Assembly (NCBI GenBank): GCA_008632985.1
Contig: QPGO01000033.1
Location: forward strand, 1-64,000
DNA length: 64,000 nt
Source: Psammoneis japonica
Taxonomy: Eukaryota
Direction of reading: 5' to 3'
Program-made: the position numbers and the translations under genes
Shown: positions 17,401-64,000 of the stretch, piece after piece
Position numbering within the stretch: position 1 is the first letter of the stretch
How the letters are laid out: every line of letters starts with the position of its first letter
Notes under the pieces: model-generated
Told to the model about the DNA's origin: nothing
The model's database searches: none
The model's input: only the letters and a program-made list of their open reading frames with translations

Positions 17401-17529
17401 AAGCATTGGGGTTGCTCCCAAGTCTGGAACCTCCTTCATCCTCTGATGTTTTGGAACTTGGATCCCGAGGCTTTCAACCAATCTGACCTCAAATCTGTCA
17501 CTGTTGACCCCCTCAAGCAAACTGGGGAG
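11492..17529 (+). pseudogene. Copia gag-pol of copy 2, broken by stops, frameshifts and a nested insertion
   Basis: Fragments 11375..11920, 11978.., 13198..13920, 14297..15784, 15803..16333 and 16489..17532. The pol fragments align to copy 1 pol. Stops at about 11918, 15782 and 16331, and a frameshift near 16485. Confidence 0.9.
13862..14308 (+). mobile_element. Miniature non-autonomous LTR element (TRIM-like), 447 bp, nested in Copia copy 2
   Basis: 110-bp direct repeats at 13862..13971 and 14199..14308 with TG..CA ends. Purine tract GGGGAGGAG immediately before the second repeat. 4-bp TSD CTGT at 13858-13861 and 14309-14312. Removing the insert restores the frame FESLCPHFGF, which matches copy 1 FESLRPHFGF. 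Confidence 0.88.
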
Positions 17530-40383: not shown

Positions 40384-41427
40384 ATGGATAAGACTGGAAT
40401 GCAGAACATCTTTCTCTATGGGGGAAACGCCGCCGCCATGGCGCCCGCTCCTCATTCTGGCGGCGATCAAGGGCATGTTGCGATTGCTCCAAACCCGCAG
40501 CAGCAACAACAACAACCCGTAATGTATGCTCCAACCGATCCGTCTGCGGCTGCCATGGCGGCGTATCATTCAAACATGTTTGGCTACTTCAATCAAAGCC
40601 AAGCCGCTGCTCACGCTCATGCTGCTGCAGCCATGGCAGAACAGCGTCTCTCTGGTTCTTACAACGGACAGCAACAGCCGCTTCAGCCTCAGCAACAACA
40701 ACAGCCATACATTGGTTATGGTATGCCTACAAATCCTTACACGACAGCCACTGCGGCTCCGGTTGCCACCAATTGGATGAATTACGGAGCCGCCATGCAT
40801 CAGCAACAAATGCCTACTACTGCGGATGGCGTATCATCCGAGTACACCATGGCCCCGTGGTCCGTCACGTCTGCCGGTGTCCTTAGCAAGATGAACCCCG
40901 AGCAGGAGAAAAAGAAACTGGCTCGCAAAAAGCACAAGGACAAGCCGAAACGTCCTCTCAGTGCGTACAATATTTTCTTCAAGGAAGAACGTGCTCGTAT
41001 TCTGGCGAGTATTCCTGAAAAACAAGACAACAAGGCCGAGGATAATGTGGATGAGGAGGAGGATGCTGACAAGAACAAGACGGGACGCAAGCGCAAAAAG
41101 GCGCACGGTAAGATTGGGTTTGAGAATCTTGCCAAGATTATTGGACATCGATGGCAGGAACTCAAGGGAGACAAGGCGGACAAGTACAAGGAGGCTGCAG
41201 CCAAGGATATGAAGCGCTACAAGGCCGAGATGGAGGTCTTTCTTACAAAGCTAGAAGAGGAAAAGAAGAGCCAAGAGGGATATTACGATGAAGAAGAAGG
41301 AGGAGAACAACAAGAAGCTTACGTGGCGGAAGAACAACAGCCTGCCGAACAAACCGAAGCTGAACAAGAAGAAGAGCATGAAGCCAAGCGAGCCAAGGTG
41401 GATGAGGAGGCTGTGAACACGCCGTAG
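40384..41427 (+). CDS. HMG-box protein, divergently transcribed paralogue
   Basis: KPKRPLSAYNIFFKEERARIL..HGKIGFENLAKIIGHRWQ..DMKRYKAEMEVF, with a Q-rich N-terminus. Confidence 0.92.
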   Translation: MDKTGMQNIFLYGGNAAAMAPAPHSGGDQGHVAIAPNPQQQQQQPVMYAPTDPSAAAMAAYHSNMFGYFNQSQAAAHAHAAAAMAEQRLSGSYNGQQQPLQPQQQQQPYIGYGMPTNPYTTATAAPVATNWMNYGAAMHQQQMPTTADGVSSEYTMAPWSVTSAGVLSKMNPEQEKKKLARKKHKDKPKRPLSAYNIFFKEERARILASIPEKQDNKAEDNVDEEEDADKNKTGRKRKKAHGKIGFENLAKIIGHRWQELKGDKADKYKEAAAKDMKRYKAEMEVFLTKLEEEKKSQEGYYDEEEGGEQQEAYVAEEQQPAEQTEAEQEEEHEAKRAKVDEEAVNTP

Positions 41428-43346: not shown

Positions 43347-44885
43347 TGCTAAGTTGACCTGCCCACTCGGAATTCCAGCTGGTTATTGCTGGCACCGTTT
43401 GTTGCTACGATGATCCGTGTGCGCTTTCGCTAGAGCTATCGGTCGTCGTTGTGGCTTTCGTTGCTTCATTCGGGCTTCATTCGCGCTTGCGAGTGGGCCA
43501 ACCATTTCGCTATGCGACGCCGAACAAAGAAGAAAATGAAAAACGGAGTTGAGGAATACAGACCTGAGAAACTTCAATGTTCCATTTTCCCGCCCTTTTG
43601 ACCACGCGCGCAAACCCGACTGCGAAATTCCATGTTGGTTGTCTAATTTTGTGTCCCTCGAAAAATGTTACTTCGTGCCTTAAAGATGGGATTGATTTTA
43701 TGTCACAACATATGGAATGATTTCTACATGGGATGCAACAAGATTTGGCACATCCCTTTCTCTCTCAAAATCGACCATGATGCCGCTTTTGAAGCCCCCC
43801 AAAACACAGAAGCACCACGTTCAGACAACGAAGAAGAAAGCGACACTTGCAAAGGGCTCTGCCGGCGCCTCACTGAGAAGCTTTCTGTTCCAGATGCAAC
43901 AAAGAGTGGGTCCAACAAGAAGACCACTGAAGCCAAGAATGATCAAGACAAGAAGCACAAAGCACCAACGGATGGCAGCAAGAGCAGTGGGTGTGTTGTG
44001 GCAAAGAGGCCAAGGATGAGCTGGCCCAAGAGGAGCCTTGCCTGCCAGCCATGGCGGGAGCAGTGAATGAGCAGCTTGGCAAGAAAAGCTGGCACTGTGA
44101 TGAGAGAAGCTTGGTCAATGGAGGCATTTGTCAATGATGTTGGAGCAGTGTGATGCCTGTCAGTGCTTTCTCAGAAAAGCGTGCCAACGACGACCCCCCT
44201 GCAAGAGACTCTGAAGCTGCTCTGGCACCACTCTTTGTTGCTTCTCCACTGGAGCCCCATGGAAAGTGTCCATGCTTGATTCCAGCTCAAATCAAGAAAA
44301 CCCACTGCTCCTCCCATGCAAAAGGCTTGACAGTGCGCAATGGAAGACCCAACAAACAACCACCAAGCTCTAGACTGTCCACTCAGAGATTTGCCAGGGG
44401 CACATGCAGTTGGGACAAATTGCTGTCCTTTCCCAGCTTGTTTGTTGGCAATGCAACACAAAGTTGGTGCAGCAATGGCACGTCAATGCTGACTCAGCTC
44501 TGCCAGTGGCATGGACACAAAGAGGGCATTGTGCCAGAAAGTGCACATGATTCTGAGATGGCACAGATGTCTGCACTTGCTTGTTGCAAAGAAAACCCTT
44601 GATGGTGCTTCTTGAGTGACACCCAGTTTTCAACAAGTGCAACCTTTTTGAGCTTCAAAGTGCCAGAGTGGTGATGGTGTCAACAATGATTTGGCTCTTC
44701 CAGCATGTCATCATAAAGCTCTCATTCTGAAGACAGGCACACTCTTCTTGTTTGCTGCCCAGTTCAATGATCATGATGTGACAATGCTGGTTGGTCAGGC
44801 AAATGTTTGGCCCAAGCTCTGATGGATGGAAGGAGGTGGACACAATGGAAAGACCATGTTGCTGGACAGACAAAAACCCATGACC

Positions 44886-44887
<2 letters not shown>

Positions 44888-44916
<29 letters not shown>
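44888..44916 (+). repeat. (CT)n microsatellite
   Basis: Perfect CT run of about 14 units. Confidence 0.95.
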
Positions 44917-44920
<4 letters not shown>

Positions 44921-46179
44921 GCACACTTCATTTGTGAGCCACAAGGTTGCAAAAAAGACTGCTCACACAGCTTGTGTGCTGGTTTGGAGAACAGCACCCA
45001 CACATCTTGTTTGCTGAGCCACAACACGGACACAGCAAACAATTGATGCTCCCAACAATCAACCAGCCTTCAATGATTGGGAGAGGTTGCTCCAATCTCT
45101 CTGCACTGGCTCTCCACATCAGAGTCATTTCTGGGAAGATTTCAAGCTGTGGCAGGGGCAAAATTTTCCTGGAGTTTTGCACTCAGGCAGCAGCTCAAAA
45201 TGTGTTGCCAATCAACCCACTCTGTGACAATTTGTTCAAAGAGTCATCAGCAGTTTGTTCCTTCAACTGTGTGCCAAGGAAGTTGGCAATGTTGTCCTTG
45301 TTGGCTGGCTCAAGCCTTTTGTCATGCAGGAGCCCTGAGCAAGCACACCTGGTCAATGTCTGGCTTGCATCATGCTTTGCCAATCCCACAGCCATCAATG
45401 TGCAGACAGATGATGCAACTGGCTCAAAGCAGGAGGCAAGGGTGCACATGGGCAAAGAGGCATAAAGTGGTGGCTGAAATGTGCCTTGATCTCCTGGCTC
45501 AAGTTGTGCTGGTGGCTCTCATGGACCAGCAAATGAAAGAGCTGCTCTTGACAGGCAGACCACACAGGGGCAGGCAGCAATCCAAGATGAACAGAAGTTT
45601 GGGCTGCACAGACACCTGACAAGTCACATCTGGTTGTGTGCACTGGAAGAGCCCAGAGCACAGCAGGGGCTGCCTGGAAGTCTGCAGCATGCTTTGATGC
45701 GGGGCAGGTCCACACTTCCTGACATCAGTTGCCCACTTGCATCCTTGGCATGTGTTTCTGCATGTGCTTTTGTGCTGATGTCACTCTTTTCCGATGGCAT
45801 TTTGCTGGGTCCCCTGACACCCTTTTGGCCACTTCTGTCATTGGTGTGCCCTCATTTCAGCATCATGTGCAACAATTTTTAGTGGAAACAACTGGCATTG
45901 ATGCCTTGTGGTTCGCATGCTTGTTGCCTTGTTCAGAATTTTTTTCAAATTCAGTGCATTTTCTACACAGGATCTGGTGCAAATTCTGTGCACTTCAGAA
46001 ACACCCACCGATGATTGCAACGTCCTTGATGATGAAAACAACTTCCATTCACACCCGTCAGCCCACCATGATTTCTTTTTCTCCTGCCAGCTGCTCAAGT
46101 CCTTCACCTCATGTGGTGAAAGTGCTTTCTAAAAGGTCAACAAACAAGTTGTTCTTAAGACTTTGAAAGATTGCAGCTG

Positions 46180-47110
46180 GAATCAGATCCAAACTTGGGG
46201 AGCCCCTCTTCATCTGTGAGCCCAGTTGGAGAACCAAGCTGCACTCAAGCAAGCAGTGCTTCAGGAGCACAACAGCACCCATCCTTGTTTTTGCTGGCAG
46301 CAATGCACAGCTGTTGAACTTGATGCAAACTGTGGCAAACTTGCACAAGATCTGTTGTCGACCAACAAGATTGTCCACCGCTACAACCCAACACATCCCG
46401 ACTGCTGCACACACTGCCAACATCTGCTCATGGACAGAGACCACAATTTTGTGGTGCGAACACAATGAGTCTTGGTGGAGCACCTTTCTCCAGTGCTTGC
46501 GGAAGAAGTGTGATGACATGCACACATCTCTGTCACTCCAGGATCTGTTGCTGCATGCTCTTGAGGGATGGTTTCATGACAACTTGCTTCATTCTGAAAA
46601 TGTCCATGAGAGTGCTGTGGCAGTGTTTCAATCTCAAGACAAAGTTGGTTGGAGACAGATTTTCAATGGGTGTTTCTCCTCATTCTGGAACAAAGCTCAA
46701 GCATCACACTTGTTGTCCACTGGTTTGTGTCACTCCTTGTCAGATGAGGAAAGGCACTTAGATTGGGCCGCCATGATTGGCAGTTTTGTGTGTGGTCTCA
46801 ATGGTGGGAACTTTGGGACAGTCACAACGACGCTGTGCATGGGCACAATTCTGAAACAAGAAAGTCCTCACAGTGCCAAGATGCTGAGGCAGAAGTGCAA
46901 GCTGTCTGTTCCAAGGCTGAAAACTGTTTGGCTTGTGATCAATCTGAGTTGCTTGATTCAGTGGAGGAACATCTTACCCATTCGACCCACAGATTGCGCA
47001 ATTGGTTGGCTGTGGTCAGGCCAATGTTCAAGTCAAACGTCCACGAAGCCCGGTGTCCAGCAGTGAGGGGCACTTGCACCATTGCAAGTTGCTTTGGCAT
47101 GGCATCACCT
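46180..47110 (+). mobile_element. Degraded 3' part of a non-LTR (LINE-like) retrotransposon ORF
   Basis: Frameshifted motifs LLSTNKIVHRYNP..CCTHC...DRDH (zinc-knuckle-like), QDKVGWRQIFNG and WELWDSHNDAVHG resemble the C-terminus of LINE ORF2 proteins. Confidence 0.6.
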
Positions 47111-50100
47111 CAGGGTGGTGGTGCCAATTCAAGCCATTTGTTGTGTGCTCCTGCCACACCTGGTGCACTGGGAGTGTGGGTTGGCTTTGCCAGAGTTTCA
47201 GGGTGGAAGTGCAGCAACACTTAAGGTTGGACTTTGGGCTTTGTTTCAATGCAAACTGCAGAGCTGCTAACTTGGCTGCAGCTGAACTGGAGTGCCAAGA
47301 GTGGCCAGCAGCAGCACCATGATTTTGGTCAAGTCATCTAGATCTCCAGAAGCAAGCAGCACAACAGTTTTGCCAGTCCACATTCCTTGAAGTGACCCAC
47401 TGCACTCTTCTTGGAAATGAGCCAAGACTCAAGCAACTTGCACCTTGGCTCCTCCTGCTGCAGATGACCTCACTGGATGTCACAGCTGTGCTGACTGAAG
47501 TTGTGAGCTGTCTGAGACAAGTCCAGTGAGCATCACAAAAAGCCATTTTGTTGCACACACCTCTGCCAAAAAGCACCGCACGTCATCCATGAAGACAAAT
47601 GTCATCTCTGCAATGATGGACCTGGGAGCACTGCTGAAACAAAATCATGCAGCTGCTGTTTCAGCCTGTCACTTGCAGGTCCATTGCTGCTTCAAAGTGA
47701 TCTCAGCTCAGCAGCGTGGTCAGTGTGACATGAGAAAGTTTTCAGCTGAAGAGCTCTCCAATGGGTGGAAGGACAGACACAACAAAAAAGACTGAGTGTT
47801 GCCAAAGAGGTGACCCATGACTCTGATCCAGCTGTGTGCCAGTTGTGTGGGGACAGAAGCAAAAAGTGCTTCTGAAAAGCAAGCAACCATTCTGGAGATG
47901 CTGCAGAACCCCCTCAATTGTTGAAAAAGCTCTGGCAGTGCTGTTTGAGTCTCATCCACTCCAACAAGTGCATGAGTGGCACTCATGAGTAATTTTCCAA
48001 GCAAAGAGAGGCAGGAGGCAGCCACTCTCATGGCTCTCTGCAGGTGTGGCTCTCCTTGGTCTTTTTGGCATTCTGGTTGCTTGTCACGGTTGGCAGGCAC
48101 CACTCATGTGGGGCTGATGGAACAGAGTTTGGTGGCTGGCTGTCAACATTTGCATGCTGCAGCTTGAGTGGCTGACCCTCTGCACCCCATTTTTTAAGCA
48201 CTTGGCAAATGTGCTGGGAAAGGCTGTGCCCCTCCCCCCAGAAGCATGCGCTTCTCTTCTTGGTGGAGGAGCAGGGGAAGGTGGCAGAATTGCCGCAGTT
48301 GTGGTGCACCAGTTCTCCATCCTTTCCTTCTCTAATTTCTCCTTGGTTTGATGTTGTGAACAGAGAAGAAATTTGGCAATCTGGTGCTGGCAATGCAAGA
48401 GGCCCAGAGAAACATTGTCAACAAAAGCATCTTTGTTGGTTGGGGGCACATGCGCGACATCACCTGGTGCTGGCACGGGGTGCAGACAGTGGGTGCAGTG
48501 CAGGGTGAAACAGTGTCATGTGGGTGGGGAACAAGCAGGTTCTGAAGATGGGAGCAGCAAGTTGTGCATGCAGTTTGGTGGAGCATCAGAGAAGTTGCTC
48601 AGCGAGGGACTTGGTGGCAGCAAAACTGCTGGCTGAAGCCAGTGGGCAGGAGTGTTGGCAGCATGGTGAGCAAGTCCAAATTGGGCAGAGGTGATGGTGG
48701 TCAATGAAGCTGCAGCAGCAGGAAAAAGGCCCAATGTAGAGAGTTGAGTGTTGGCACAGGCCCAGGCAGCATGTGCAGACAGGTGTTGGGAGGAGGAGGG
48801 TGCTGAGTTCCAGGGCGGAGCAGGAGGGGGGGTGTTGGATGTTGGCACCGCTCTTGGTTGGCTCCAAAGAGAAGGCAGTGAGCAAAGCATCCAGGGGCTC
48901 CGAGGTGGTCTGTGGCGTGAAGGGCATTGGGTGGATGCCATCTTTGTCAAGGGAAGTGATCATGGCAGTGCCGCATTTCGCAGCCAAGACTCTAAGCCAA
49001 GCAAGGAGAGGACCTCCTTGACTGGACCGAGAGTCACCGCACGAATGTGGGAGCGAAATGGGTTGAAGGACGGACGACGGACGAGACGAGCGGAAACGAG
49101 GCCAGCCCAAGGGATCCCCTCATTGTCTGGCAGGATGGGAGACACCATGGTGCTGTCGGAGGCGTCTCCTGGGAGATGCCAACGATGAAAATCGAATGGT
49201 TTTTCTCCCTCTCCTGTCAGTCAATGCTGAAAATCCCTTGCGTGGTCTGCTTGCGCAGCCGGGAGTGTCTCGTGCATTGGCACTGTTTGCCACCACGCCA
49301 TTTCGGCGCTATCCTGTGGATGCACCTCCCAATTTTTTTTGCTGTTAATGCTGACTACGGCCACGCCATCTTGGCGCCATGTCATGTGGGCATTGCTCTA
49401 AATCCCGACTGGGTCCGCTCATTGGCGGGGACCGCTTCAGCGGCCGAGGATTGCCTCGCACTCTGGCCTGTTTGCCACACCTTTCAACGGTGCTTTCTTA
49501 CAAGGAGCACATCCTCATTTGGACGGTCTCAGTGCCATTAAAGTCCCGCATGGGCAAACAGCAGTGTGGCTTTTTCATTCCGCCTGCCACTTTCTCCTGA
49601 ACGCCCAGGTTGGGTCTTTTTCTTTTGCCGCTCTGCGGTCCATGGTCATCGCCTTCCCCCTCGGCGTGTCCAATTTTTTTCCCTCTCCCAGGGATGCAGT
49701 GTGTTCAGGCTTGTGTGCCAGTGCACTGCAGCGTTGGAATTACCAGTTCTATCTGGTCGATGTCAATTGCACGCACATGTGTGCATTCCCGCGAGGGTTT
49801 GGTCAAAACGAAATTTACCACCACGTTTCGGGGTTTTTCGTCTTCTCGCGAAATGCGCGCCATCACGATGATGAATGGTGATGGAAACTGACCCGTCACA
49901 TGGGGGATGAAACTTGGATTTCTTCTTGTCTCCATTCATTGGATAAGTGCAGGAATCGCGAAGGGTTACGTTTGCGGAACTGACACGGCATCAGTCAACG
50001 CTTGTCCTTCTCGAGCAATTTCCACACGCTGGTGTCCTTCACTTTCCGGTGAGATTGCTCTCACTTTTCCTTTTTTTGCGATCGGACGAGCCTTCAGTTT

Positions 50101-50122
50101 TCTGCTGCCCTGTTGTTCCACC

Positions 50123-52360
50123 ATGAGCCAAGCCCACGCTGCTGCCATCAACCGCGGTGAGCTCTCCGCTGCAAAGCGGCACTCCGCCGCTTTGCCCTCC
50201 TCCACGGGTGCGATCGAGTCTGTCTCAACTGCTGTCCACCGTGACACCCAGAAGGAGCTACGAGACCATGTCTTCGCGACCTCTGACCTTTTCTACGCGG
50301 TCCATAATCGCAAGATTGCGGTTGTGGCGAAACCTCGCCCCAGGCAGCACGCCGATGGGAATCTAAAGTGGATCGGGAGCCTCTCGGATGCGATCGGCGA
50401 GGTCATCCCGATGTCTGGCAGTTGGACTCGTTTCCAAGGCCATGTGACCACTCTAGTCCCCCAGGGCGCTGTGGATGCTCATCACCTGCCCAAGTGCGAA
50501 CTCAGCCCTGACGAGATTGACGGTCCCGTTGGCAACGACGGCAACAACGTGCCGGCGTCGATGGGTCGTCTCCATTTTGGGAATCCTTCCGGACCGGCAG
50601 AGCGTCCCTCCATCGTCGCGCTCCCGATGTTCCTGCCAATCCCAACGGGCATCACCCTTCCTGTTGACTTCGACCCAGCAGATCCCCCAGCATCCCTTGC
50701 CACTGACTTTCTGCTCGGAGCGGTTTGGGCTCAGGGCATGTCCTGGTTGCTTCAGCACAACGCTTCTGTCTCTGTCACGGAAGGCGGCCCTGTGTTTGAG
50801 CAGAACGGTTTTGCAATTGTCGATGAGTTTGCAGGCCTCAAGATCTACAATCTTGATGACAATGATGTGCAGATGCTCCAACCTCTGACGGATTGGTGCA
50901 CACCAGTCAAGACCACGATGGACGCCTTTGCGGATGAGACCTGGAGGCACCTCGGTGGAGAAGAGCCCGCGCAGATGCAAGCTCCCGCCGCCCCAGCCCA
51001 AGGCACCAACGGACAGGTTCCGAACTGTGCCATCCACATCCCGCGCCAGGACTCGAAGAAAGAGTCAGACCAGAAGCTGAGGGCGCGCCGACATTGGTTG
51101 CCGCTGGTCACTCTGTGCGTTCCGAGCGACTGCTGGTGCAGGTCCGGAGGACCCGCCTGTGATCATCGTGGGCGAGCTTGCAGACCAAGCGGTTGAGATT
51201 CTTCAGGACACGTCGGCTGCCAATGCAAACCGTGACCTCGCGGATCTTGTTAAGATGGCCATTGTTGCATCAGCCCATGGTGATGGCAGTCTAGACGCTG
51301 GGGTCGACTGCAAGTGCACCATCGTCAACAAGGCCCACACGGACTGTTTCCGCGGCTTTAATGTGGTTGCGGAGCCCCCGCAGTGTGGCCAGGCTTCGCA
51401 CCATACGAAGCTGTCTGTCCTTCCTTTTCTTCCCCCGAAGACTGCATCATCTTCATTTGCTGGTCTCGAGGACGAAGGGAGGGTGCTCCATCGGGTGCTT
51501 GCTGACGGCTCCGACTGCAAGATCCCTGATGACGCGAAGGCAAGCGACCTTCATGTCCAAGGAAGGATGGACACCGCCAGCGATCTGTGGTCAGTGCTTT
51601 GCAACTTTCGCTGTGTCCTTGGATGCTGGATCAAGGACTTCGACAATGCGGAGCTGTGGAAGTCCCTGGATGCGTGCGCAAAGGTTCTTTGGTCGCACCC
51701 GGGCCGCACGTGGCTCAAGAATCTCGAGGACCCCAAACCAGTCGTCGCTGGCATCCCAGACGATTTCCAGACTATCATCAAAGTCTGCTTTGAGATCGGA
51801 GACTCTCCATTGTACCGTCAGGCGGTAGAAACCGAGCGTCCACTGAGCCATCAGATGGCAAAGGACGCCCGCACTCTGGTCAAGTCCCTCATTGCGGACC
51901 TCAACACCGCAATCACGCGGGGCAAGCCTCTGGCCTTTGTGGAGGCATCTACGTTGGCCCTTGTCCCCCCAGGCAACTCTGTGTTCCTCTCTGCCAGCGG
52001 AACGAAGGATGATGCGACCAAGTCTGGTCAACCTCTGAATGAGAAGCCGCGCACGGGGGAAACAGATGACAAAACCGCCGAGCTCTGCAAGGCGATGGGC
52101 ATGCTCAATTTTTCGGGCACGAAGCGGCTCCCGACCAGCCCCGTTTTCTACAAGAAGCGAGGATCAGATCAGGAGGAACGCATCTGCATGCACTTTTGTG
52201 CTGAGGGGCACTTCTGCAAATTCCCCAACTGCCCGAAGCCCCACCCATCGTCACTCTCCAAGATTCCGAGTGAAAAGAGGGATGCCTTTTGCCAATTTGT
52301 CAAAGACACCCCGGGGCTCGATTTTGTTCCTGGCAAGGGCCCAGACGGTGCGTCCCAATC
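50123..52360 (+). pseudogene. gag-like ORF of the YR element with C-terminal CCCH zinc finger, frameshifted near 51.1 kb
   Basis: Frames 49907..51196 and 51159.. are collinear. Contains CMHFCAEGHFCKFPNCPKPH. Confidence 0.6.
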
Positions 52361-52484
52361 AGGTTCGAATGTTCCCAGTCTATGCACCATGCCCTGTTGC
52401 CAATGCAGTGTTGTCCAAAACTGTTCCATTTTTCACTCTCGATTAGTCTACGTTGTCCCTGACAGGTCCGTTCGTCTCATCGCA

Positions 52485-55346
52485 ATGGATGTCGACGACG
52501 ACAGCGATCAGGAGTACAAGGTGATCGATGCAGAGCAAGACGAGACCGGAGTGAGTGTCGCTGAAGCCATCCCAGCTGTTGACGCTGCACTTGCCACGTC
52601 GGTGAAGGAGCCGCACCCGAGCCCACGCCGAGGTGCGGTCACGCCGCAGCCTCCCGTCGACGAGAATGAGCTGATCGAGCTGTTCCCTGCCTTCTCCATG
52701 GTCCATAAGAAGAAAGGGACCGATTTGATTCCTGCAATCAATGACGGCTTCAATGAGAAGGCACGTGAGCACTTTGCCAACACGGAACTGTCACCGGGCG
52801 TGCGTGCTAAATTGGACCAAAAATTCGGCAAGGAAAACTTGAATCAATGTTTCTTGTCGGAAGCGTGTTTGCGTCATGTGTTGCTGCCGCTGTTGAAATC
52901 TGGATGCATGTCGCCACCGGTTGATTGCACGAGTGACTCGTCTGCCCAAATCGTCTTTGGGGGCGATTGGGAGAACTTCGGAGCGGCCATCCCGGAAGTA
53001 GCCGAGTTTATGAGCCTGGTCCGGGAATGTGGCGACATCGACTTTAATCCTCTCCAAGGCTGCCCCGAGGGATGGCAAAAAGAGACAACGGTTAATGCGG
53101 ATAGAGCTGCGATGACAACTGCCGCGTTGTTGCATTTTGATGGCGACCCAGCAAACCTCGTTCGCTGGGTTGGCGGACCGCACGTCGGTGAACACAGATG
53201 CACGCAGAAAATGCTCCGCTTTCTACAAGGTCGTGCACCCGACGAGACAACAGCACACGTTTGCCGCATCTTCCAAGACGGGGCGCCAGCGAAATGCAAC
53301 ACTGCTTTCACTGAAGCCAACTTCCAAGCAGCTCTCAAGTGCGGAAACCACAAGACCGTCGACGCTGCACCTGACAAAACATTGGCGGCAGTCGTCAAGG
53401 ACAATCGCAAGGGTTTCACGCTGCTTTTTGACCAGCGTCTGGTGCCGCACTTGCTGAACTGCCATCTCACTCCTCAGGGGATGGTGGACCTTGACAAGAA
53501 ATGCAAGAGTCCGCGCCCTGTCTTCGACAGCACGATGCGAGCGACTCCGGGTGGCATGGCAATCAACGACACGTTGGACCTCAAGCACGAACCGCCAATC
53601 ACGTTCCCATCAGCGGAAATGGACTTTATGGTGTGGACATGGAACATGAGAATGTCCCACCCACACGAGGAGATCTGCCTCGGCGATGATGATGTGAGTG
53701 GCGCTTTCCGCAACATGAAGCACCACCCGAACCTCATCGGGATGCACGCCAGCGTCCAGTGTGGACTGGGCATCCTGCAGACGGGTTGCACCTTCGGCGA
53801 TGAGACCAACCCAAGCAACTGGGACGCTGTTGCCAACGCAAGACAATGCCTTGCTCAACAATTCTGGCTGGTGCCCAACGTGGTGGAACTCGCCCAGCAG
53901 CATCTCCCGACGACATCATTCGCCGAACCTCCCACAGCTGAAGAGGTGGCGTCATTCTGTCCTGCGGAAGCAGACGCTGTCAATCCGGGTGTGTTCCTAG
54001 ATGGCAACCGTTTGCCACCAACATGCAAGCACCACGTCGACGATGACTTCTACGGAGACATGCGTGACTTGATGAAAAGAACAGTCGCTGCGAGCGCCCT
54101 GGCCGTGCATGTTTTGTTGGGCTTCCCACGCGATGAAACTCCGGATTTCCCAAGCAAAGAGAAACTGGACACACTGTGCTTGCATCTCCGACGAGCCCCA
54201 GGAAGGCACTTCAACTCAAGAGTGCTGTCGGTGGGAATGCTCCCATGCAAACGAGAACAGTTCCTTGAAACTTTGCGAGAATGGCACGACAAACAACGGC
54301 ACACACTGTTGGATGCAGCGAACCCAAATGGTCAATGTGAATTCCACACGCGGCATTGTCCATGGGCTCGGCCGAATTTTTTTGCACTCCAGAACTCCAT
54401 GCGGCGGGCTGTGGTCGTCCAATGCACCATTGTCAAACGAATCATGGAGCGACAAAATTTCAAATTAAATTTTGAAACTCAACTGCTGAGTCATCTCAGA
54501 AATGGGCTGCCGAGCTTGCTCGCGCGCACACAGGCCCAGCTCCTCTGTCAGCTGAAGACCGAGATCCCGATGACATCTGATGTCATTGATGTGACAAAGG
54601 GTGCAGTGTCCCACATCGAATCAACGCCAGACCCATGGTCAGCACCGATTGGATGTGTCATGCCATGAGTGCCACATTGCCAGGCAATTGGAGATGCCAG
54701 TGACGCAGGTGGAGGAGCCTGCTGCGCGGAACTCAAATTTTGGTTCGCATTTCTTTGGGGACCAAAAACAGCGAAAGGGCTCCGGCTGAGGAAGGCCTCC
54801 GACCCAGAACATGTCCACATCAACACAGCAGAGTTTGTTGTCATCACACTCAAGCTGGCAGCTACAATTGTCCGCATGGAGACTGTGACCCGAGAACGGG
54901 CCCATGAGTTCTTCCGGAACGGCATCGTCCCGCTGTACCTGGTCGTCAGGAGTCGTTCAGACAACATGGTGTCGGTCAACCGGTCCAACAAAGCAACGTC
55001 AAAGTCGCCACAGGGGCAACGATTTGTCTGGGTCTTCTGCGAATTGCTCCGCCGTGCTCGTGCCAACTTCAACGGAGATCACATCTTTGGCGACGAAAAT
55101 TTTGTTGCCGACGACATCTCACGACCTTCTGTTTTTGCCTTGATCTCGCATCGCACCCATTCTGAACAGCTGTTTCGGAAGCATCCCTTTCTGAAGACCT
55201 GGGACTGTTTCCAGCCGAGTCAAGAGCTGCTGCAGCTCCTCTCCTCACAGCTGTCCACCAAGCACAGAATGGCACCCCAGATCCCAAGCGACTTGGGACA
55301 GCTCGATCCCGCAAAATCCATTTCCTCCACTTTTACAAGAGCATGA
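52485..55346 (+). pseudogene. RT and RNase H of the YR element; in-frame TGA at 54666-54668
   Basis: RPVFDST, LGDDDVSGAFR, TFG..NPSNW and HVDDD (decayed YVDD). RNase H motifs IGDAS, HINTAE, SDN and ENFVADDISR. Confidence 0.85.
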
Positions 55347-56422
55347 AGTGGCATCTAGGAGATCCGGAAATGACTGTGATTGGCAAGGACCTGAAGCGCT
55401 GCCAACTGGTGCCAGCTGTGCATGCTTTGCATCTAGCCAGCGGCTCCACTCTCTGCTGCAAGAATGTCTCCTCAGGTGCCATCAAGGAACATGTCCACGA
55501 CGTGTCAACGTTCGTGTCTCCATTTGGTTCCACGCATCGGGACGTCCGTAAAGACAACAGCATGGACACCAAGATGGGGTGGATCCTCAGGGGAGCATTC
55601 GATGAACTCCAATGGCATGAGAAAGTCCCGGAAAGGCACGAGTCACACACATTGCTCATGCAGCAACAAGCGACGTCAATGGCAGACACTGTGCGAGAAA
55701 CCGACCCGGATGCGATCGAAGTGGTCCTCGCTGACTGGTTTGAGATTGGGCCAATGGCCGGCTTGCGAAGTGTCGAATGGGCCCAATCCAATGAACACTC
55801 AGAACTGGAGAATCCAAGGCTGAACATCTTCGAGGAGACCTGCGCGTTCTGCCTCGACGACGTCCGATGCGAGACAAAAGACAAGCACCGACACACCGGG
55901 GCGGATTGTCTTGTCCCCAAGCAAGAGGATGTCGAAAGCATGTGTGTCATGTTCCGAGCTCAGAAGAACATGCACAATGGTGAGGAACGCCAGTTTGCAA
56001 TGAACCTCGATGGCAAGCACGACTTGGCAAAGCCGATGCTTTGCGTCATCCGACGTTTCGTGCAGGTCCGTGGCAAGGATGACAAGATCTGCCCCCTTGC
56101 TCTCTACTTTGATCCAGAGAAGGGCAAGTGCCGTCTCGTCACGTCCAAGAAAATCGAGACCCACATGCGCCGAATTGCCACAGAAGTGTGCCACCTCGAC
56201 CCGGTGAAAGACAAGAAAGCTCTTGGCAAATGGTCAGCTCACTCCCTCCGTGTTGGAGCCTGCAACATCCTTCACGAGATGAACTTTAGTGGCGAGCAGA
56301 TTAAATGGCTGCTCAGATGGCGATCTGATGCCTTTGTGGCTTGTCTCCGCAACTGCCTGGGTCTTTCCGAGGCCCATTGTCAAGCTCTCGACAAGGCGGC
56401 ACCCATGCCGTTCTTCGATTAA
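55343..56422 (+). pseudogene. Tyrosine recombinase with catalytic Tyr replaced by Cys
   Basis: GLRSVE (catalytic R), FRAQKN (K), HSLRVGA (HxxR) and RWRSDAFVACLR, where Tyr is expected at the Cys. Confidence 0.88.
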
Positions 56423-57647
56423 TTCCTTTACACGGATTCAATGTGTCCCCTTTCCACGCGTCCTCTCTGCGTGATGTAAAATCGCACACTGTCGTCCCAT
56501 TGCATCTGAAATTTCAATTTTGAAATTCGAAATTTGATCCCAGCAACGTGATCGTGTGTGTGCATTCAGGAGGAACATTCGTTCCTCCATCATGTCTGAA
56601 GAAAATGGATTTTTTTTTTTCCGGTTGGCTCTGCCTCCGATGACATGGGCGCGTTCGCAATGCTTCCAGCATTCCGCGTCGGCAGCATGGTCTGCACACA
56701 GTGAAAAAGGGAACCAATTGCTTGGCACTGGTGATTCCAAGCCCAGTCCCATGTCCCAATTGCTTCACCTGCTAGCGACTGTTTTCATCGTGGCAACAAT
56801 GTGAGTCTGTGTGCGGGTGTGAGTGCTGCGTGTGTCACAGACGACACCAATGTGTTGCATCGATGGATGAGAGACGCTTCCACTGTGCCATGTCATCGGA
56901 GTGCAGACAGCCGAGGCGGAGGCAGGGAATCCGTGGGATTCTCGCAGCCAAGACTCTAAGCCAAGCAAGGAGAGGACCTCCTTGACTGGACCGAGAGTCA
57001 CCGCGCGAATGTAGGAGCGAAATGGGTTGAAGGACGGACGACAGACGAGACGAGCGGAAACGAGGCCAGCCCAAGGGATCCCCTCATTGTCTGGCAGGAT
57101 GGGAGACACCATGGTGCTGTCGGAGGCGTCTCCTAGGAGATGCCAACGATGAAAATCGAAAACCCACCACTCCCTCCCCTGTACACAGTGAAAAAGGGAA
57201 CCAATTGCTTGGCACTGGCGATTCCAAGCCCAGTCCCATGTCCTAATTGCTTCACCCACTAGCGACTATTTTCATCGTGGCAACAATATGAGTCTATATA
57301 CGGATATGAGTACTACGTATATTATAGACGACACCAATGTGTTGCATCGATAGATAAGAGACGCTTCCACTGTGCCATGTCATCGGAGTGCAGACAGCCG
57401 AGGCGGAGGCAGGGAATCCGTGGGATTCGGGCTTCGTGGGTTGCGTCGAATTTCGACCTCACTTTTCTTTTCACTTCCACCGCACACCGTACACCGCGCA
57501 CACCGCACCGCAAAAATCGTCGAAACGCGAGAAGGGAAAACGTATGAGAGAGAAAGGGATACGATAACGTAAACAAACTCCAAACAGCAGTTGTTACTGC
57601 CATTGCCTGACTACATACAAGAGCACATTGCCATATAGTAAGACACA

Positions 57648-58511
57648 ATGGTTCTAGAAGCACGAGAAGTGGTGTACTGCGGAGCATGTGGAATGCCACC
57701 GGAGTATTGTGAATACGGGCCAGACTTTGAATCGCACTGTTTGCCGTGGCTAAAGGAAAATCACAAGGAAATGTACATTAAATTGCACTCGAATAAAAAC
57801 AAGGACGAAGACGGTGATGCTGCCAAGGAGGAGCGCCCTGAACGACCATGGACAACAGAAGAACGATTAGTTGCTTTTTATACAAAGTACCTGCCAGAAA
57901 AGGTATGAGTATGTTTGATGGCTTCCTCGCTGCCAAACTGTGTGTCTGCTCGACGATTTCTCAATCTCTGACGCATTCCAATCGTCTTTATTATTCACTA
58001 GATCGACGGAGTCCCAGCTCTACTAGAAAAGTACGAAGGAAAGCATGACAAGCTTTTTCAGGCTCTCGTGAAGAAGTACGGGCCTGAACCGGACGATCCT
58101 TACTATGCCGAAAGCAGTGACGACGAAGACAGCGATTTGGCTGAAGAAATGGGACAAGCTTCGCTGTCAGACGGCAAGAAGAAGAAGCGCCGAGGCGTTG
58201 CCGCTAAGAAAGCCACCAAGGTGGATACCCGAGTGGTGATTCAAAAGATTTCGCGGAACAAACGCAAGGCCGTCACAATTGTTGTTGGGATGGATACCGT
58301 GCCGAATGTCAATCTCAAAGATGTGGCCAAGGCGTTCTCGAAACGCTTTGCCGGGTCGTCGTCTGTCAAGGATGGGACGCATGGGAAAGAAATTATTATC
58401 CAGGGTGATCATGTGGATGATGTTGCAGACATGGTTGTATCCAAGTTTGGTGTGCCTTCGGATTCAGTGTTTTTGGATGAAGGTGGAGAACTAGTGCCGT
58501 ATGATGCATGA
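57648..58511 (+). CDS. DENR: Density-regulated protein / TMA22 (SUI1 domain); intron 57903..58001
   Basis: VVYCGACGMPPEYCEYGP, RNKRKAVTIVVG, FSKRFAGSSSV and IIIQGD. Confidence 0.92.
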
Positions 58512-58939
58512 TCGTTGAGCTAGTAAATGACGTTGGAGATGGACTGATACAGTGTGCCGACTTGACCTTGAGCGCGTGCAACTGAATTCTTTCTTTTCAG
58601 ACGAGAAGCAGTAGATGACGTGACTTGTTTAGAGTAAGATGATCGCGACGTGACGAAGATCCCCCTTTTAATGTATCTTTAAAATCAAGTTGACGTTTTC
58701 AGCTGCAATGCAATGAGTTGTGTCGTTCTGTGCGTGCATCTTCTAAGCACCAAAGCTTGTTACCGGTACGAGAAACGATGGAAAGGTTGCGCCATAACAA
58801 TGACAACTGACGAAGATAAAAGCAGAGGAAGGCACTGACAGTTGTTTGGATCTTTGTCCACAGACCCCACACATGAAGAGATGATGCTCAGAAGAGAGAT
58901 GGAGATAGATGGAATGCACCTCACGCCTGAAATAAATAA

Positions 58940-61840
58940 ACAACGCACACATTGACACAGAAGTGCATGAGTGCAACACTGCCACACTGCTGGCAGTGCC
59001 AGCTAGAGCAGGGAGAAGGACACACCGGCACATCCAAGGCAAGTGCAATGAGTTGTGCAGGAGACTTTGTTGGATTTCCTTTTGGTGACATTGACTTGCC
59101 AGCTCAACATTCACTTCAAAGAGTCAGGAGAAAGAGCACTGTGTTTGGTGCTCAGATGCTGCAAGACTCCCTGCTGTCAATGCCCAGTTGACAGAATGCC
59201 TGCACTGTGAGTGGCAGAGGAGGTGGCAAGATGAGCTTCCAAGGCTGAGGACATGGTCATGGCAGAGGTGACAGAAGCCACAGGGCCATGAGCAAGAACA
59301 AGAAGACCAGAGACAAAAAACAATTTCAGACCAAGATGAAGTTCCAACCTCCATCGCTGAACAGCAATTCTTGCAATGCAACACAAGGAAGTCAAGGAAA
59401 AGATTGTTCAACACACATGCAGATGGAGAGCACCGACAAGGTGTGCACTTGCGCACTTGGCAAAATCCACAGAGGATGTGAAGCCAAGGATTTTAAGGCC
59501 AAGATGCCTGCTGCAAAGATGTCAAAAGCAGATCTGCCAAATGAAGATGCCAGTGACTGCCAGAAACCACTGAAAGAGAAAGAGAGTGTGAATGACAAAA
59601 AATTGGAGGTGCAGGCAGCGCAAAGCAGAAAAAGTGGCTGCCACAAGAAGATCAAAAGAAAGTTCAAAGAAAACAAGAATGCCATGTTTGAAAAGATTGT
59701 GGACAACTGTTGTTCCAAGCAAATGAAAAAGAGAGTGCAGGGTGATCCTCATTTTGACAATGTTGACGTGTTCCAGCCGCACGTGACCCAAATCGTGCAC
59801 AAAAACGACATTTGCGCGATTTTTGCACGGTCTCTGACTTACGAATGGTTTTTCACCACCAAAAGTGTCGATTTGTACAAATTCTAATGTTTTGCAACAC
59901 TGACAAGACTCGTGTGAGTGTTGCAAAAGCATTGTCATTGTGCCATCAATGTTTTTCATGGCGACAAACGAATCGCAACACAGCGGATGATTTTCGGTGA
60001 AATTGTTGCCGTCATTTGGATGTCAACCAAGCACATCTTTCTACGATGCTTTTTTGCACATTTTCTGCTTACAAAGAAATTTCTGTAAAAAGAGTGCGGA
60101 CGTGCAATCAGCATTGAGTCTGCTGAGGAAGTTCATGACACACATCCCATGAGGAATTTGACACCCCACAAAAAACTGTTTAATTCTTCACAATTGTTCA
60201 CACTCTGGATGCCTGCAAAAGCCAATCCGCTCAAGTGTTTTGTGTGAAAATGCTGCATGCGCTGACAGACACACAATTCATGCTCAAAATCGATTGTCCT
60301 TTTGTGTGTCACCTGGGACTGGAACACGTCTGTCAAAGGACATGACCGATGACCCGATCATGCCGCTGAAGTCAGTCCTCCCAAGACCCTTGCTTGCTCA
60401 TTGAGAGGTCAACACCCATTCTGTACACACAAAACACTGTCACAAGGAACAACTGCAGCCAAAATTGCAGAGACAACAACAGCGACAACAACGGGGAAAC
60501 TGGGCCCGGGAGTCAAAAGGACCAGAGGGTGCAGAGGAGAAAAGAAGAAGGAACAACAAGAGCCACCAAAAAGCAGGAAGTGACAAAAAAAAAAGCTGAG
60601 ATCACCCCAGTGATCAACAGCAAAAGGAAGAAGGAAGATCCAGTCATTGTTGAGGGATGCAATGATGAGGAAGCTGTCAGACAAAGGGGAAGATGAGGTG
60701 CTGTCAGACTCCCAAACAGACACAAGCTGCGATGCAACGCATGTCTGGAAAAGGGAATGAGTGAAGCCAGAGGCAATTGCCATGAGTCCATCTGGTGTGG
60801 GACCATGTGCTCCATGTCTGGTGCGCCAACACCCTCCCCTGATCAAAGCATCGGTTTGATCACAAAAAAGAAGAGCTGCACAAATGGAGCAAATGGTGCT
60901 GTCATCAGAAAAACACATCCGCGCCATGCCTGAGATCATTTCTGGCCATCTAAGATGCTGCACAAGCCTGTGATAACTTCTTCTCTTTTCATCTTTTCTT
61001 TGTGTTGTTGTTGCTCTGGCTGCTTGCTGCTCCACACAATGCAGAGCTGCTTTTTGCTGTCGACACTGCTGCTGCTCTTGCCCCCACGACCTTGGTGCCA
61101 CCCCAAGTGAAAAGACTGTGCTGGCAGCTCTGTGCCAAACACCAAAGCTGCAAAGATGATTGCCCAGCTCTTCAAAGAGGTCATGAAGCACATGCTTGTG
61201 GCTCTCATTCGACAGAAGCAGCACACAGCAGCAGAGAGACATTTTCAGCAAGCTCTGGCGCTTTTGCACATGCTTCTTGGAGATGCATTGTCAAGCACTA
61301 GAGCAGTTTTTTTGTGTGGCAGCTCTCAATGACAACTGGGTCACACCCCAAAAATGTGCCAAAAACACTTTTCAGGGGTGCTGTTTGGTCATAGACAACA
61401 CACACAGAGACTCTTGGCTGGCCTGCTGGGGCGGCAATGAGCTTTTGCTGGGTTGTGCTGCAAAGCATCTCACAACTGCTTGCTTTCAGCTCCCAAAACA
61501 GCTTCACAATTTCCCCTTTTTGGCATTTTGTTCACCCCTTCCACCCGATTCTTCAAGGCACAGCACACGCCGCTGTTTTCTGTGCAGGCTTTTGCCCCTC
61601 TTGCAGCTTCTCTTTTTTTGCTTCTTTGCACTCTTGCTCTGCCTCCTCTTGCAGCCTCTTTCACTGGTGCTGGCATGGCTGGACACTCTGTTTCTGCAAA
61701 AGCTCTTTGTTTGCAGGTTGCATTTTGCTTTTCATGTTGTTCCTTGTCCTTGAGTGCAGCTGCCTTTGGTGATGGATGGGTGCCGCAAGCCGCAGGAAGC
61801 GGTTTCGGAAACGTGACGTGTTGGTCGACGTCGATCTGAC
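58940..61840. other. TpA- and CpG-depleted repeat domain 3 (unidentified degraded elements; possible gag remnant at about 59290-59765)
   Basis: TG/CA-rich with very few TA apart from a patch at about 59840-60185. KFKENKNAMFEKIVDNCCSKQMKKRV is weakly gag-like. Confidence 0.65.
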
Positions 61841-62420
61841 GTGTTTACAGAATCGACTAGGTGACGTTGTCAAAGTGCGAACCCCGATCACGGAGTTTGG
61901 CAGGAACAGCTGTTTGCTGTCACCCCGCTCAACGGCAGCCACACGATTTGGTGTCAGATGCGATTCCGAGGTTGAGTGTGATTGGTCAACTAGAAAGGAA
62001 AGTGCAATGCTGTTAAATAAAATTTTCAAATCTGACGAGGAAAAATGAAGAATTACTTATCGATTTGAACGAATCCGAACAATCAACATCAAAGGCATTT
62101 AAATCCCATTTTTGAATATTTAAGAAGGTCATCAAAATATTTAGGGAATCAATCACGATCAGACTGGGCAATTGAATCTTCAATATCAAAACGGTTGAAT
62201 TATCTGATTGGTTATCGTCCTTTTCTTGACATCTTGAAGGGCCCACTTGACACCTGACCATAAATACCAATTCCATTCTTAGTTCCGCGGAACACTGAAT
62301 CTTCTACGGAGGAATTCCTACATATTTACGTAGGAGACGGCTCGCTGGAGTGCAGTGTTGTTGCACGTGACAGGGAACTCCCATAATTTCCTTCGCCAAC
62401 AAACAACGGAAGAAACGACC

Positions 62421-62904: not shown

Positions 62905-63679
62905 ACATCTTCACTGTACAAAAACTTGCCGCATCGACCTTTACTTGCTCGAACCTCACTCACTCGGAATATTCACCCAAAATTTTGTTAAAATAGATCA
63001 CGAAGCTAACTATAGTAACTCTTCTTAAGACGAAAGTGTTCCATTTTTAAAGAACAGACTAAATAGAATTATACTTCTCCTTCAAAAGGAGATGCGAGCA
63101 AAAGTCACACTACCCTCCGGCGGTTGACCAACGCCAATTCAGTCCTGCCTGCATCGAGCTGCCGATATGCATGGTACTCTGCGACACCATCATAGACTTG
63201 ACTTTAGTAAGGTAGCTTGGTCATAATAGAAATACTAATCTAAAGAGGAAGACGCAGTCAAATACTTCAGCTACAGTAGCTGTGAAGGATCAAGCGCGAC
63301 CGCGTTTCTTGGTTCTTGGTTTGCCTCTTGAAGAAGCCCAGGAATTCGCTTTTTCGTTCTATTTTACGTCACAGCTTCAAGTTACACGTACGAAGGACGG
63401 TCGTCAGTGTCCTGATGGCCACGAGTTTGCGTTGCGGGTGGAATTCGTACTAAACGTACACGATTCTACTGCAGATCATATTTATGTTCTAAGGTCATGA
63501 GGAAACGAAATACATTTTACTTCAAGTTAGTGACGTCATCATCTGTGCTGGGGCGGGATGCACCCACCATCGCGCGGACATCACGAAATGGGATGATTCA
63601 GGCTCGATCCAACACAAGATGGAAGTGCCCCCAAATCGTGCACCACAGGGCACTCAGCGGTGGAAATTACACAAGGTGG

Positions 63680-64000
63680 TGATCAGCACCAGCAACTTTG
63701 TGGGAAGTAAAGTGAAAGGCTGCTGCACCTGGCTTTGCTTCTTGTTGTGACTTGAAAAGCAGAGGGGGGTGCATCAGTCTCTGAATGATTGCTGCACCAC
63801 CTGACAGAGTTGCTTTTTGACCATGTTCAGAGCAAAAACAAGCCCCAAGCCAGAGGAGAGATCATGCGCTCCAGCCCCGGGCTTGGCTTTTTGTGACATG
63901 TCAGCCACAGAGTTCTGCACCCGAGCTCCTTGAAATTGTGTTGTCTGATGTCACCAGCTCTCATTGAACAAAAGACAGAAATGTGCACTTGTCCAAATTG
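63680..64000. other. Start of another TpA-depleted domain
   Basis: Last TA is at about 63708. The remainder is TG/CA-rich. Confidence 0.5.

Follow-up and report, generated by a model that had tools for sequence, protein, structure and literature searches.

How can two copies of one repeat, lying 487 bp apart within a single mobile element, come to differ so completely that one has lost nearly all of its TA dinucleotides and the other none? The question is raised by a 64,000-nt stretch of Psammoneis japonica DNA (contig QPGO01000033.1, positions 1 to 64,000; hereafter the window), in which a tyrosine-recombinase element with the layout A1, internal part, B1, A2, B2 ends just upstream of the gene for DENR, the density-regulated re-initiation factor. 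Comparison of the repeats with one another, with the remainder of the 64-kb window and with contigs of one sample, which together form the evidence base, points firmly to a TpA-specific process that produces transitions only, affects either strand of DNA already integrated, stays within tracts, and is governed by position and not by sequence.

Scanning the window in 500-bp steps revealed four tracts nearly devoid of TpA, with TpG and CpA in excess. The depleted tracts total 33,148 bp, against 30,852 bp of other DNA, and TA makes up 0.50% of their dinucleotides (observed/expected ratio (O/E) 0.09) compared with 3.96% elsewhere in the window (O/E 0.58). TG and CA together rise from 14.2% to 19.8% in the tracts, CG falls from 5.76% to 4.08%, and GC content is 0.527 relative to 0.476. 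The gain in TG+CA (5.6 points) matches the summed deficits of TA (3.46 points) and CG (1.68 points; sum 5.1), and chance is excluded as the cause of the TA depletion. Per segment, TA O/E is 0.04–0.14 in the four tracts and 0.28–1.01 in the segments adjoining them, so the loss is confined to tracts of mobile or foreign DNA, with sharp edges and normal DNA alongside. The host itself is identified by a prolyl-tRNA synthetase gene at 64–1569, whose best matches are in diatoms (88% identity to an MMETSP transcript and approximately 80% to Thalassiosira, Phaeodactylum, Stephanodiscus, and others), which marks the window as diatom nuclear DNA. Without TAA and TAG, TGA is the sole stop codon left in the depleted stretches, and long overlapping open reading frames (ORFs) result on both strands and in several frames; in the region 4564–7515, for example, a frame of 975 aa on the forward strand lies over one of 450 aa on the reverse strand.

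Within the tyrosine-recombinase element the depletion ends abruptly. The two copies of the 250-nt direct repeat B are 92% identical, and all 20 positions at which they differ are transitions, with no transversion. At 16 of these, B2 has TA where B1 has TG (12) or CA (4); two further positions form a single site (57257–57258) with TG in B1 and CA in B2, and the remaining two are CG in B2 against TG in B1 and GA in B2 against GG in B1. B1 has therefore lost 16 of 17 TA and retains one, whereas B2 keeps all 17. The two copies of the 219-nt repeat A are 98% identical and differ at four positions, two of which are TA in A2 and TG in A1, leaving three TA in A2 and one in A1; these two are exactly the gtagga and cctagg of A2, read as gtggga and cctggg in A1, to which a preliminary description of this locus had drawn attention. 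Across the step, loss of 16/17 TA on the left contrasts with 0/20 on the right (Fisher p = 1.3e-9). Going rightwards, lost TA end at 56869 and informative kept TA begin at 57012, which places the step 636–778 bp upstream of the DENR start codon and 420–560 bp inside the right end of the element. The preliminary description had spoken of mutagenesis fading within an element beside a gene, with the TA-retaining B2 and A2 closest to the DENR start codon: the change inside the element is real and the position of the spared repeats is as described, but the transition is a step completed within at most 143 bp and not a fade.

Whether this step records targeting depends on the starting state of the repeats. 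Split direct repeats are characteristic of PAT, Ngaro, and Viper elements, in which, according to the accessible portion of the source, A2 is identical to A1 and B2 to B1, with the internal repeats placed downstream of the recombinase (PMC4157794). The order A1 ... B1 A2 B2, with internal repeats downstream of the recombinase gene, gives the element of the window the same Ngaro/PAT-type layout. A metagenome relative (L019) shares this layout with both repeat pairs 100% identical, and the pairs are 100% identical in two other relatives (L012 and L040) as well. The repeats thus start alike, and their differences record events that followed insertion.

A step of this kind could also arise if A2-B2 had a history separate from that of the rest of the element, as a resident solo A-B unit or a tract converted from an unmutated copy that homologous or recombinase-mediated exchange within A brought together with an already mutated element, or through an assembly join of two loci across the repeat. 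We consider such a mosaic unlikely. It would draw on the fact that the step interval (56870–57012) takes in the junction of B1 with A2 along with the opening 71 bases of A, a stretch in which such a crossover would fall, and that among the contigs listed none spans B1 to B2. These contigs come from a DNA run of the same organism and were aligned at 80% likeness; figures drawn from them are summed depths among the contigs listed, which are not copy numbers, and B1-type and B2-type copies are indistinguishable among them. Summed depth is approximately 1640 over A and 560–880 over B, far above the 160–450 of the internal part and the 61.6 of unique DNA, and extra A/B units probably exist in the genome. 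Even so, outside TA and CpG sites neither A1/A2 nor B1/B2 shows a transversion or a gap in 469 bp. A1 and A2, which align without a gap, also share a base at 57080 that is missing from 1246 of 1860 depth units of other copies; its absence from about two thirds of the other-copy depth speaks for A1 and A2 belonging to one insertion. Further, the order A1..B1 A2 B2 is the normal layout of the family, as seen in L019 and in the accessible portion of PMC4157794, and an unmutated 0.49-kb piece of element beside a promoter would need explaining under a mosaic as well.

The same contigs bear on whether the sequence of A2 and B2 is itself resistant. At six positions (57012, 57183, 57287, 57297, 57299, and 57311) the mutated letter accounts for 72–87% of the summed contig depth, and at four of these sites the TA-bearing remainder is about 48–50, close to one unit of unique depth (61.6), so that the B2 of the window may be the sole TA-bearing copy. 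At 57287, 57297, 57299, and 57311, other contigs carry C in place of the T of B2, with the G of B1 standing one base on, and many CA/TG swaps relative to the window occur in other-copy contigs inside the element. Sparing of B2 in every copy of the family, which would have spoken for a property of the sequence, is not seen at these sites. Since B1 and B2 began alike and met opposite fates, and since A and B are mutated elsewhere, the sequence of the element does not appear to decide which DNA is hit; the corresponding claim of the preliminary description is well supported by these comparisons.

The differences between B1 and B2 alone give no polarity, and the step could in principle be read in reverse, with elements that were TA-free at first and with TA gained in B2 and A2 by C-to-T changes at CpA, as in repeat-induced point mutation (RIP). 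The RIP of ascomycete fungi converts CpA to TpA, yields an AT-rich product and is triggered by duplication. The probability of a gain is practically nil here, and several independent observations refute it. The two long terminal repeats (LTRs) of the first Copia-type element (Copia-1) differ at 20 positions, comprising five CA/TG swaps, two TA/TG sites, six CpG transitions, and two further single-base differences; the LTRs of the second (Copia-2) show nine CA/TG swaps. Such swaps account for 5 of 7 adjacent double differences between the Copia-1 LTRs, 9 of 16 between the Copia-2 LTRs, and 58 of 194 between the two Copias (next class 15), making them the commonest double difference in all three alignments. 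From an ancestral TA a swap takes a single change in each copy, and from any other start it takes two; the swaps therefore point to TA as the ancestral state. Likewise, at sites that read TA in B2 and TG in B1, other copies of repeat B read CA.

Protein alignments tell the same story. Across columns with a conserved tyrosine, 18 of 29 now hold Cys or His and two still hold Tyr: the six such columns of the recombinase read His, His, Phe, Tyr, Cys, and Cys, and the 23 of the pol-like ORF, aligned with the first 40 of 89 homologues, have become nine Cys, five His, one Tyr, and eight others. Other residue classes are kept in about half to nine tenths of their columns. Tyrosine makes up 0.3–0.4% of the window proteins relative to 2.9–3.2% of their homologues, and even the invariant, catalytic C-terminal tyrosine of the recombinase has been lost by TA to TG (TGT, Cys, at 56342). 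Both Tyr codons kept at Tyr-consensus columns lie in CTAC. Among 79 metagenome relatives of the element, 77 have a TA O/E of 0.48–0.92, which shows that the family is not TA-poor by nature. The other two, L048 (positions 1–2768, TA O/E 0.08) and L079 (positions 2501–3554, TA O/E 0.29), carry the same TA-free, TG/CA-rich signature, which indicates that the TA-erasing process occurs in further environmental organisms too; no recognisable A/B repeat layout was found in either. Taken together, these sequence comparisons argue that the mutagenesis removes TA, converting it to TG or CA, and exclude a RIP-type process that makes TA.

The preliminary description had also set aside an editing event at the RNA or complementary DNA (cDNA) stage, and here too the data agree. 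At one and the same ancestral TA, the paired LTRs of a single insertion read differently (the five and nine swaps described above), and the older DNA around the Copia-type insertions is as depleted as the elements, with 1 TA in the 519 bp of 2698–3216 and 4 TA in the 1172 bp of 9287–10458. It is thus well supported that the changes arose on the chromosome after integration, and an RNA- or cDNA-stage event can with similar support be ruled out. At the Copia swap sites both strands were hit about equally (27 TG to 31 CA), and a runs test of TG against CA at these 58 sites finds no clustering (z +0.84), such that hits look independent. In B1, the 12 successive lost TA between 56771 and 56834 all became TG, with the CA outcomes on the flanks (4 runs where 7 are expected, z −2.1), a weak hint of strand-coordinated hits over approximately 60 bp. 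Long single-strand processive events were considered and dropped, given the Copia result and B1 as the only hint. Comparison of a run contig with the window over 1,679 unique bases (57429–59107) yielded one difference, TG for CA at 59029–59030. The site lies at the very edge of tract 3, and its appearance is that of an ancestral TA hit independently in two closely related genomes or haplotypes.

The TA dinucleotides that survive in the tracts (n = 165) reveal a flanking-base preference. Relative to other DNA, TTAA is enriched 3.7-fold and TTAG/CTAA 2.7-fold among them, ATAC/GTAT is at 0.11, and ATAT is absent (0 compared with 83 in other DNA). ATA is the favoured target and YTAR the most resistant, an enzyme-like context.

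Duplication as such is a poor candidate for the trigger. A 683-bp tandem gene duplicate in the window (33499–34883 and 35987–37422; 2.5 kb apart, 91% identity) has an ordinary spectrum (32 transitions, 27 transversions) and retains 21 and 19 TA, so that repetition by itself is not the trigger. A more elaborate version, in which long duplicated stretches are recognised by homology as in RIP and the terminal 0.49 kb of the element falls outside the recognised unit, is very unlikely. The depleted tracts are mobile elements wherever this can be checked, and the edge at 59004–59078 coincides with the start of multi-copy sequence, as such sensing would predict; but A2 and B2 repeat A1 and B1 in cis and many copies in trans and are still spared, and the linked 683-bp duplicate is untouched. 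In addition, the hypermutated viral insert of Bigelowiella natans is described as single-copy in the accessible part of a recent preprint (bioRxiv 10.64898/2026.01.13.699255).

What lies on the far side of the step is an expressed gene. The predicted protein has matches to DENR_N (2.2e-17) and SUI1 (3.1e-20), and the combination of this zinc-binding N-terminus with SUI1 identifies the gene as DENR. A contig of run X2 matches 57522–57900 and 58000–58665 with no mismatch and exactly without the GT..AG intron; it behaves as the copy of a transcript, which indicates that DENR is expressed in that material and bears out the preliminary description of the neighbouring gene as active. The leader reaches to at least 57522, 94 bp beyond B2. 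Run X2 has no cover over A2/B2 and carries no evidence on their transcription. Relative to 57522, the spared A2-B2 unit extends from about −94 to −580, and mutated DNA begins 510–650 bp upstream.

This proximity raises the further possibility that the mutator does reach A2-B2 and that lineages hit there have been lost, the A2-B2 sequence having taken on the role of DENR promoter. Only 94 bp separate the end of B2 from the start of the spliced contig, B2 contains TATA-like runs, and the site at 57257–57258 may be a hit within B2, in which case the region is reachable. Selection would, however, have had to keep 20 TA one by one while 16 of 17 were removed from the neighbouring copy; no intermediate zone is seen, and A2, 270–490 bp further upstream, is also spared. 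We regard selection as quite unlikely.

The DENR step is one of several tract edges. The preliminary description had listed sharp edges at about 2700, 19320, 43740, 58940, and 61840, and all five are real and sharp on the TA map (2697/2942, 19219/19322, 43725/44371, 59004/59494, and 61392/61846), which adds a sixth at 63528/63668. On promoter sides, the distance from edge to start codon is 268 bp (start codon at 2430), 618 bp (43108), 636–778 bp (DENR), and 576 bp (62421). The composition of the tracts also varies with age. The older TA-free blocks (9287–19320, 43726–48977, and 59005–61845) are strongly depleted in CpG too (O/E 0.15–0.51), and at 500-bp resolution the edges of CpG decay and TA loss coincide in them. 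The younger Copia-1 and tyrosine-recombinase elements show no CpG depletion (CpG O/E 0.84–0.86), and between the repeat pairs of the latter 18 of 20 TA differ compared with 3 of 28 CpG; TA loss runs far ahead of CpG decay in the young element. Methylated tracts with fast TA loss and slow CpG decay would fit the shared edges.

In the mechanism that we favour, the A of 5′-TA-3′ is changed to G on either strand of integrated mobile DNA, turning TA into TG or CA, in a process that comes close to saturation inside contiguous silent tracts, prefers ATA, and spares Y-TA-R. Enzymatic deamination of adenine to hypoxanthine in DNA would be the simplest chemistry. The mutator would be restricted to repressed, probably cytosine-methylated chromatin; the open chromatin of the DENR promoter would set the tract edge approximately 0.5–0.65 kb upstream of the transcript start, and the last A2-B2 unit, adjoining expressed DENR, would be left intact. 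Two observations favour a repressed domain: in the older blocks, the tracts of CpG decay end where those of TA loss end, and what was spared of the element is precisely the half kilobase nearest the promoter. That the edge is set by a chromatin domain from which promoters are excluded is plausible and fits the data from this one case. For the full proposition, that position in cis and not sequence decides which DNA is hit, with repressed chromatin hosting the mutator and the DENR promoter setting the edge, we put the chances as evenly balanced.

Several observations weigh against this interpretation. The possible hit at 57257–57258, where B2 reads CA and B1 TG, suggests that protection may not be absolute. 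CpG O/E is alike in the mutated part (0.86) and in A2/B2 (0.80–0.83), and CpG thus gives no sign of methylation in the mutated part. The step interval includes the B1/A2 junction, a natural place for a recombination joint, and the contiguity of mutated B1 with unmutated A2 rests on the assembly, which short contigs cannot confirm. The protected distance varies: 268 bp separate tract 1 from the start codon at 2430, and the edges near three other start codons lie 576–778 bp away from them. On the 3′ side of DENR, multi-copy sequence begins at 59034–59078 (loose contig ends), 30–70 bp from the left edge of tract 3, and this edge (59004–59078) appears to be simply the end of an element. The DENR edge is the only one demonstrably inside an element, and hence a single case.

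The last ORF of the element that carries the step (55343–56422) has 67 homologues at E ≤ 1e-5; Pfam gives the family a weak match (PF00589 at 0.003, in one member out of 26), and the family profile had no match among PDB sequences, so that it was a fold search that identified the recombinase. The predicted structure of one homologue (predicted local distance difference test, pLDDT, 80.6) matched Cre recombinase over its full length (E 1.5e-6), followed by Tn1549 integrase and XerH; there were 36 PDB matches at E ≤ 0.001, and among the matches listed all are tyrosine recombinases. The element thus encodes a tyrosine recombinase, of which the window copy has Cys at the position of the invariant Tyr. 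TA O/E from A1 to B1 is 0.14, and no target-site duplication was seen at the element.

The preceding ORF has 90 homologues and carries what we take to be polymerase-like motifs. Neither the window ORF nor any of 30 homologues showed a Pfam family, and no PDB sequence matched below E 0.24. Atlas clusters that match the pol-like protein at a score of 0.96 carry RVT_1 on 10% and 52% of their members, which serves as a lead only. An HVDD motif was considered as a TA-hit derivative of YVDD and rejected, as the homologues have HVDD too. The element is likely a retroelement. Its pol-like protein (51081–55346) is one of some 90 environmental proteins (P0188–P0277; 660–1280 aa) that form a family in which no member has a precomputed Pfam domain and a 30-member alignment matched neither Pfam nor PDB sequences; the protein probably represents a lineage of reverse transcriptase/RNase H from tyrosine-recombinase elements that is as yet unannotated. 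Pfam detected no domain at all in the ORFs of the element, such that absence of the methyltransferase of PAT/DIRS elements is indistinguishable from its divergence. One metagenome contig (L014) bears two tandem copies of a related tyrosine-recombinase element (2992–9846 and 11120–17974), each 6.9 kb and 99.97% identical.

The coordinates of the features discussed are collected in Table 1. The two elements of tract 1 are assigned to the Copia type with RVT_2 at 1e-19. Outside the tracts, a divergent pair of HMG-box genes, at 37864–39273 on the reverse and 40210–41427 on the forward strand, shares a 123-nt inverted repeat (38395–38517 and 40912–41034; 78% complementary), and the pair looks like an inverted gene duplication.

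Table 1 Features of the 64,000-nt window, in order along the sequence; target-site duplications (TSDs) are given where present
Feature	Position	Strand	Remarks
TA-depleted tract 1	2698–19320	none	older CpG-poor sequence and two nested Copia-type LTR elements
Older CpG-poor sequence of tract 1	2698–3216, 9292–10453, 17780–19320		host of the two nested Copia-type insertions
Copia-type LTR element, first	3217–9286		TSD ATGCT
Copia-type LTR element, second	10459–17774		TSD GAACT
TA-depleted tract 2	43726 to ~56940	none	unclassified block and tyrosine-recombinase element up to B1
Unclassified block of tract 2	43726–48977		poor in CpG and TA alike
A1, left terminal repeat	48978–49196	+	1 TA left; TG where A2 has TA at 49049, 49171
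Internal part of the element	49197–56691	+	three ORF regions
ORF, no family found	49892–51196	+	inside the internal part
Pol-like ORF	51081–54668, continued 54669–55346 beyond a stop	+	internal part
Tyrosine-recombinase ORF	55343–56422	+	last ORF of the element
Cys codon TGT	56342–56344	+	column is Tyr in 67/67 homologues; invariant C-terminal Tyr of the recombinase
B1, hypermutated copy of repeat B	56692–56941	+	1 TA left; 16 TA sites changed to TG (12) or CA (4)
Step from mutated to unmutated	56870–57012	none	≤143 bp; holds the B1/A2 junction 56941/56942
A2, spared copy of repeat A	56942–57160	+	3 TA kept
Spacer after A2	57161–57178	+	
B2, spared copy of repeat B	57179–57428	+	right end of the element; 17 TA, TA O/E 1.01
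DENR upstream region and 5′ leader	57429–57647	+	
DENR exon 1	57648–57902	+	start codon 57648
DENR intron	57903–58001	+	GT..AG
DENR exon 2	58002–58511	+	coding region 57648–58511
TA-depleted tract 3	59005–61845	none	left edge at the start of multi-copy sequence
TA-depleted tract 4	63530–64000	none	ends with the window

How does this signature compare with known forms of directed mutation? It shares with RIP the chromosomal hypermutation of mobile DNA at one dinucleotide, by transitions only, on both strands and with sharp edges, as well as the destruction of element genes. Unlike RIP, TpA is here destroyed, GC content is raised (0.527 relative to 0.476), and Tyr becomes Cys or His; the C-to-T changes at CpA and the dependence on duplication that mark RIP are not observed, with the B2/A2 repeats and the 683-bp gene duplicate spared. 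As in the deamination of 5-methylcytosine at CpG, a self-complementary dinucleotide decays to TG/CA in the same tracts and, in the older blocks, with coincident edges, but another base and another chemistry are involved and CpG decay is slower (3/28 CpG against 18/20 TA). Deaminases of the ADAT2/TadA type, converting A to hypoxanthine, would yield exactly A-to-G, and their action on chromatin DNA is unproven for any alga. The natural tRNA substrate of ADAT2/TadA has U before the target A. Clustered transitions in retroelements are a feature shared with RNA editing by ADAR and cDNA deamination by APOBEC, from which the present case departs in hitting both strands about equally (27 TG to 31 CA), in the differences between LTRs of one insertion at the same TA, in the equal depletion of the surrounding older DNA, and in the sparing of one of two identical repeats within an element. 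According to the available portion of the preprint cited above (bioRxiv 10.64898/2026.01.13.699255), ADAR, too, makes A-to-G changes, with a preference for U ahead of the edited A.

The closest parallel is reported in that same preprint, for mutation-accumulation lines of Bigelowiella natans (Mettrop et al., bioRxiv 10.64898/2026.01.13.699255, reported April 2026). Its accessible text describes de novo TpA to TpG/CpA mutations in integrated giant-virus and virophage DNA, with all GC-biased new mutations on TpA at a rate approximately 1000-fold over background and with TA-poor, TG+CA-rich clusters elsewhere in the genome too, and proposes adenine deamination with an ADAT2-like candidate, of the ADAT2/TadA-type class; it mentions neither diatoms nor tract boundaries. 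As far as that text goes, the two systems agree in that TpA alone is hit, by A-to-G and T-to-C transitions on both strands, and in that chromosomal DNA is affected in tracts of foreign DNA beside normal DNA, with TpA depletion and an excess of CpA and TpG. They differ in host, a diatom (stramenopile) here and a chlorarachniophyte there, and in targets, which in the window are two Copia-type elements, the tyrosine-recombinase element, and older repeats. In the window TpA loss has come close to saturation (O/E 0.09), relative to the 0.45 given for the Bigelowiella natans viral insert; further features contributed by the window are a tract edge that falls within an element next to a promoter, and a preference for ATA over YTAR. 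In Bigelowiella natans, by the same account, mutations were seen in real time, whereas timing is here read solely from LTR divergence and the contig swap at 59029–59030. Full-text searches, with most subscription journals outside their coverage, found hypermutation directed at TpA reported for neither diatoms nor other stramenopiles. The signature is therefore a known one, and what is new is the host lineage, the retrotransposon targets, the saturation, the flanking-base preference, and one locus with positional targeting.

For genome analysis, TA-free tracts in which only TGA stops remain give long spurious ORFs on both strands by which gene callers would be misled, and the loss of TA shifts GC content and inflates age estimates from LTR divergence. 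The locus beside DENR also offers a natural experiment, in which initially identical repeats 487 bp apart were in one case rewritten and in the other left untouched, a contrast that excludes sequence-guided targeting and indicates a positional signal. More broadly, and as a tentative proposal about which we remain somewhat doubtful, diatoms may possess a chromatin-guided genome defence with the mirror-image chemistry of RIP, in which a DNA adenine deaminase erases TpA from silenced mobile DNA, acting in cis in repressed domains and halted by open chromatin at promoters; given the same signature in a rhizarian alga, its origin would be old and its distribution wide across the SAR supergroup (stramenopiles, alveolates, and Rhizaria). 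The signature has so far been known from one 2026 preprint on a chlorarachniophyte, and the diatom case extends its range to major primary producers. If the proposal is true, there is a second eukaryotic lineage in which directed point mutation disables mobile DNA, with chemistry opposite to that of RIP, and such a defence would explain the GC-rich, TA-free, stop-codon-poor transposon islands in these genomes.

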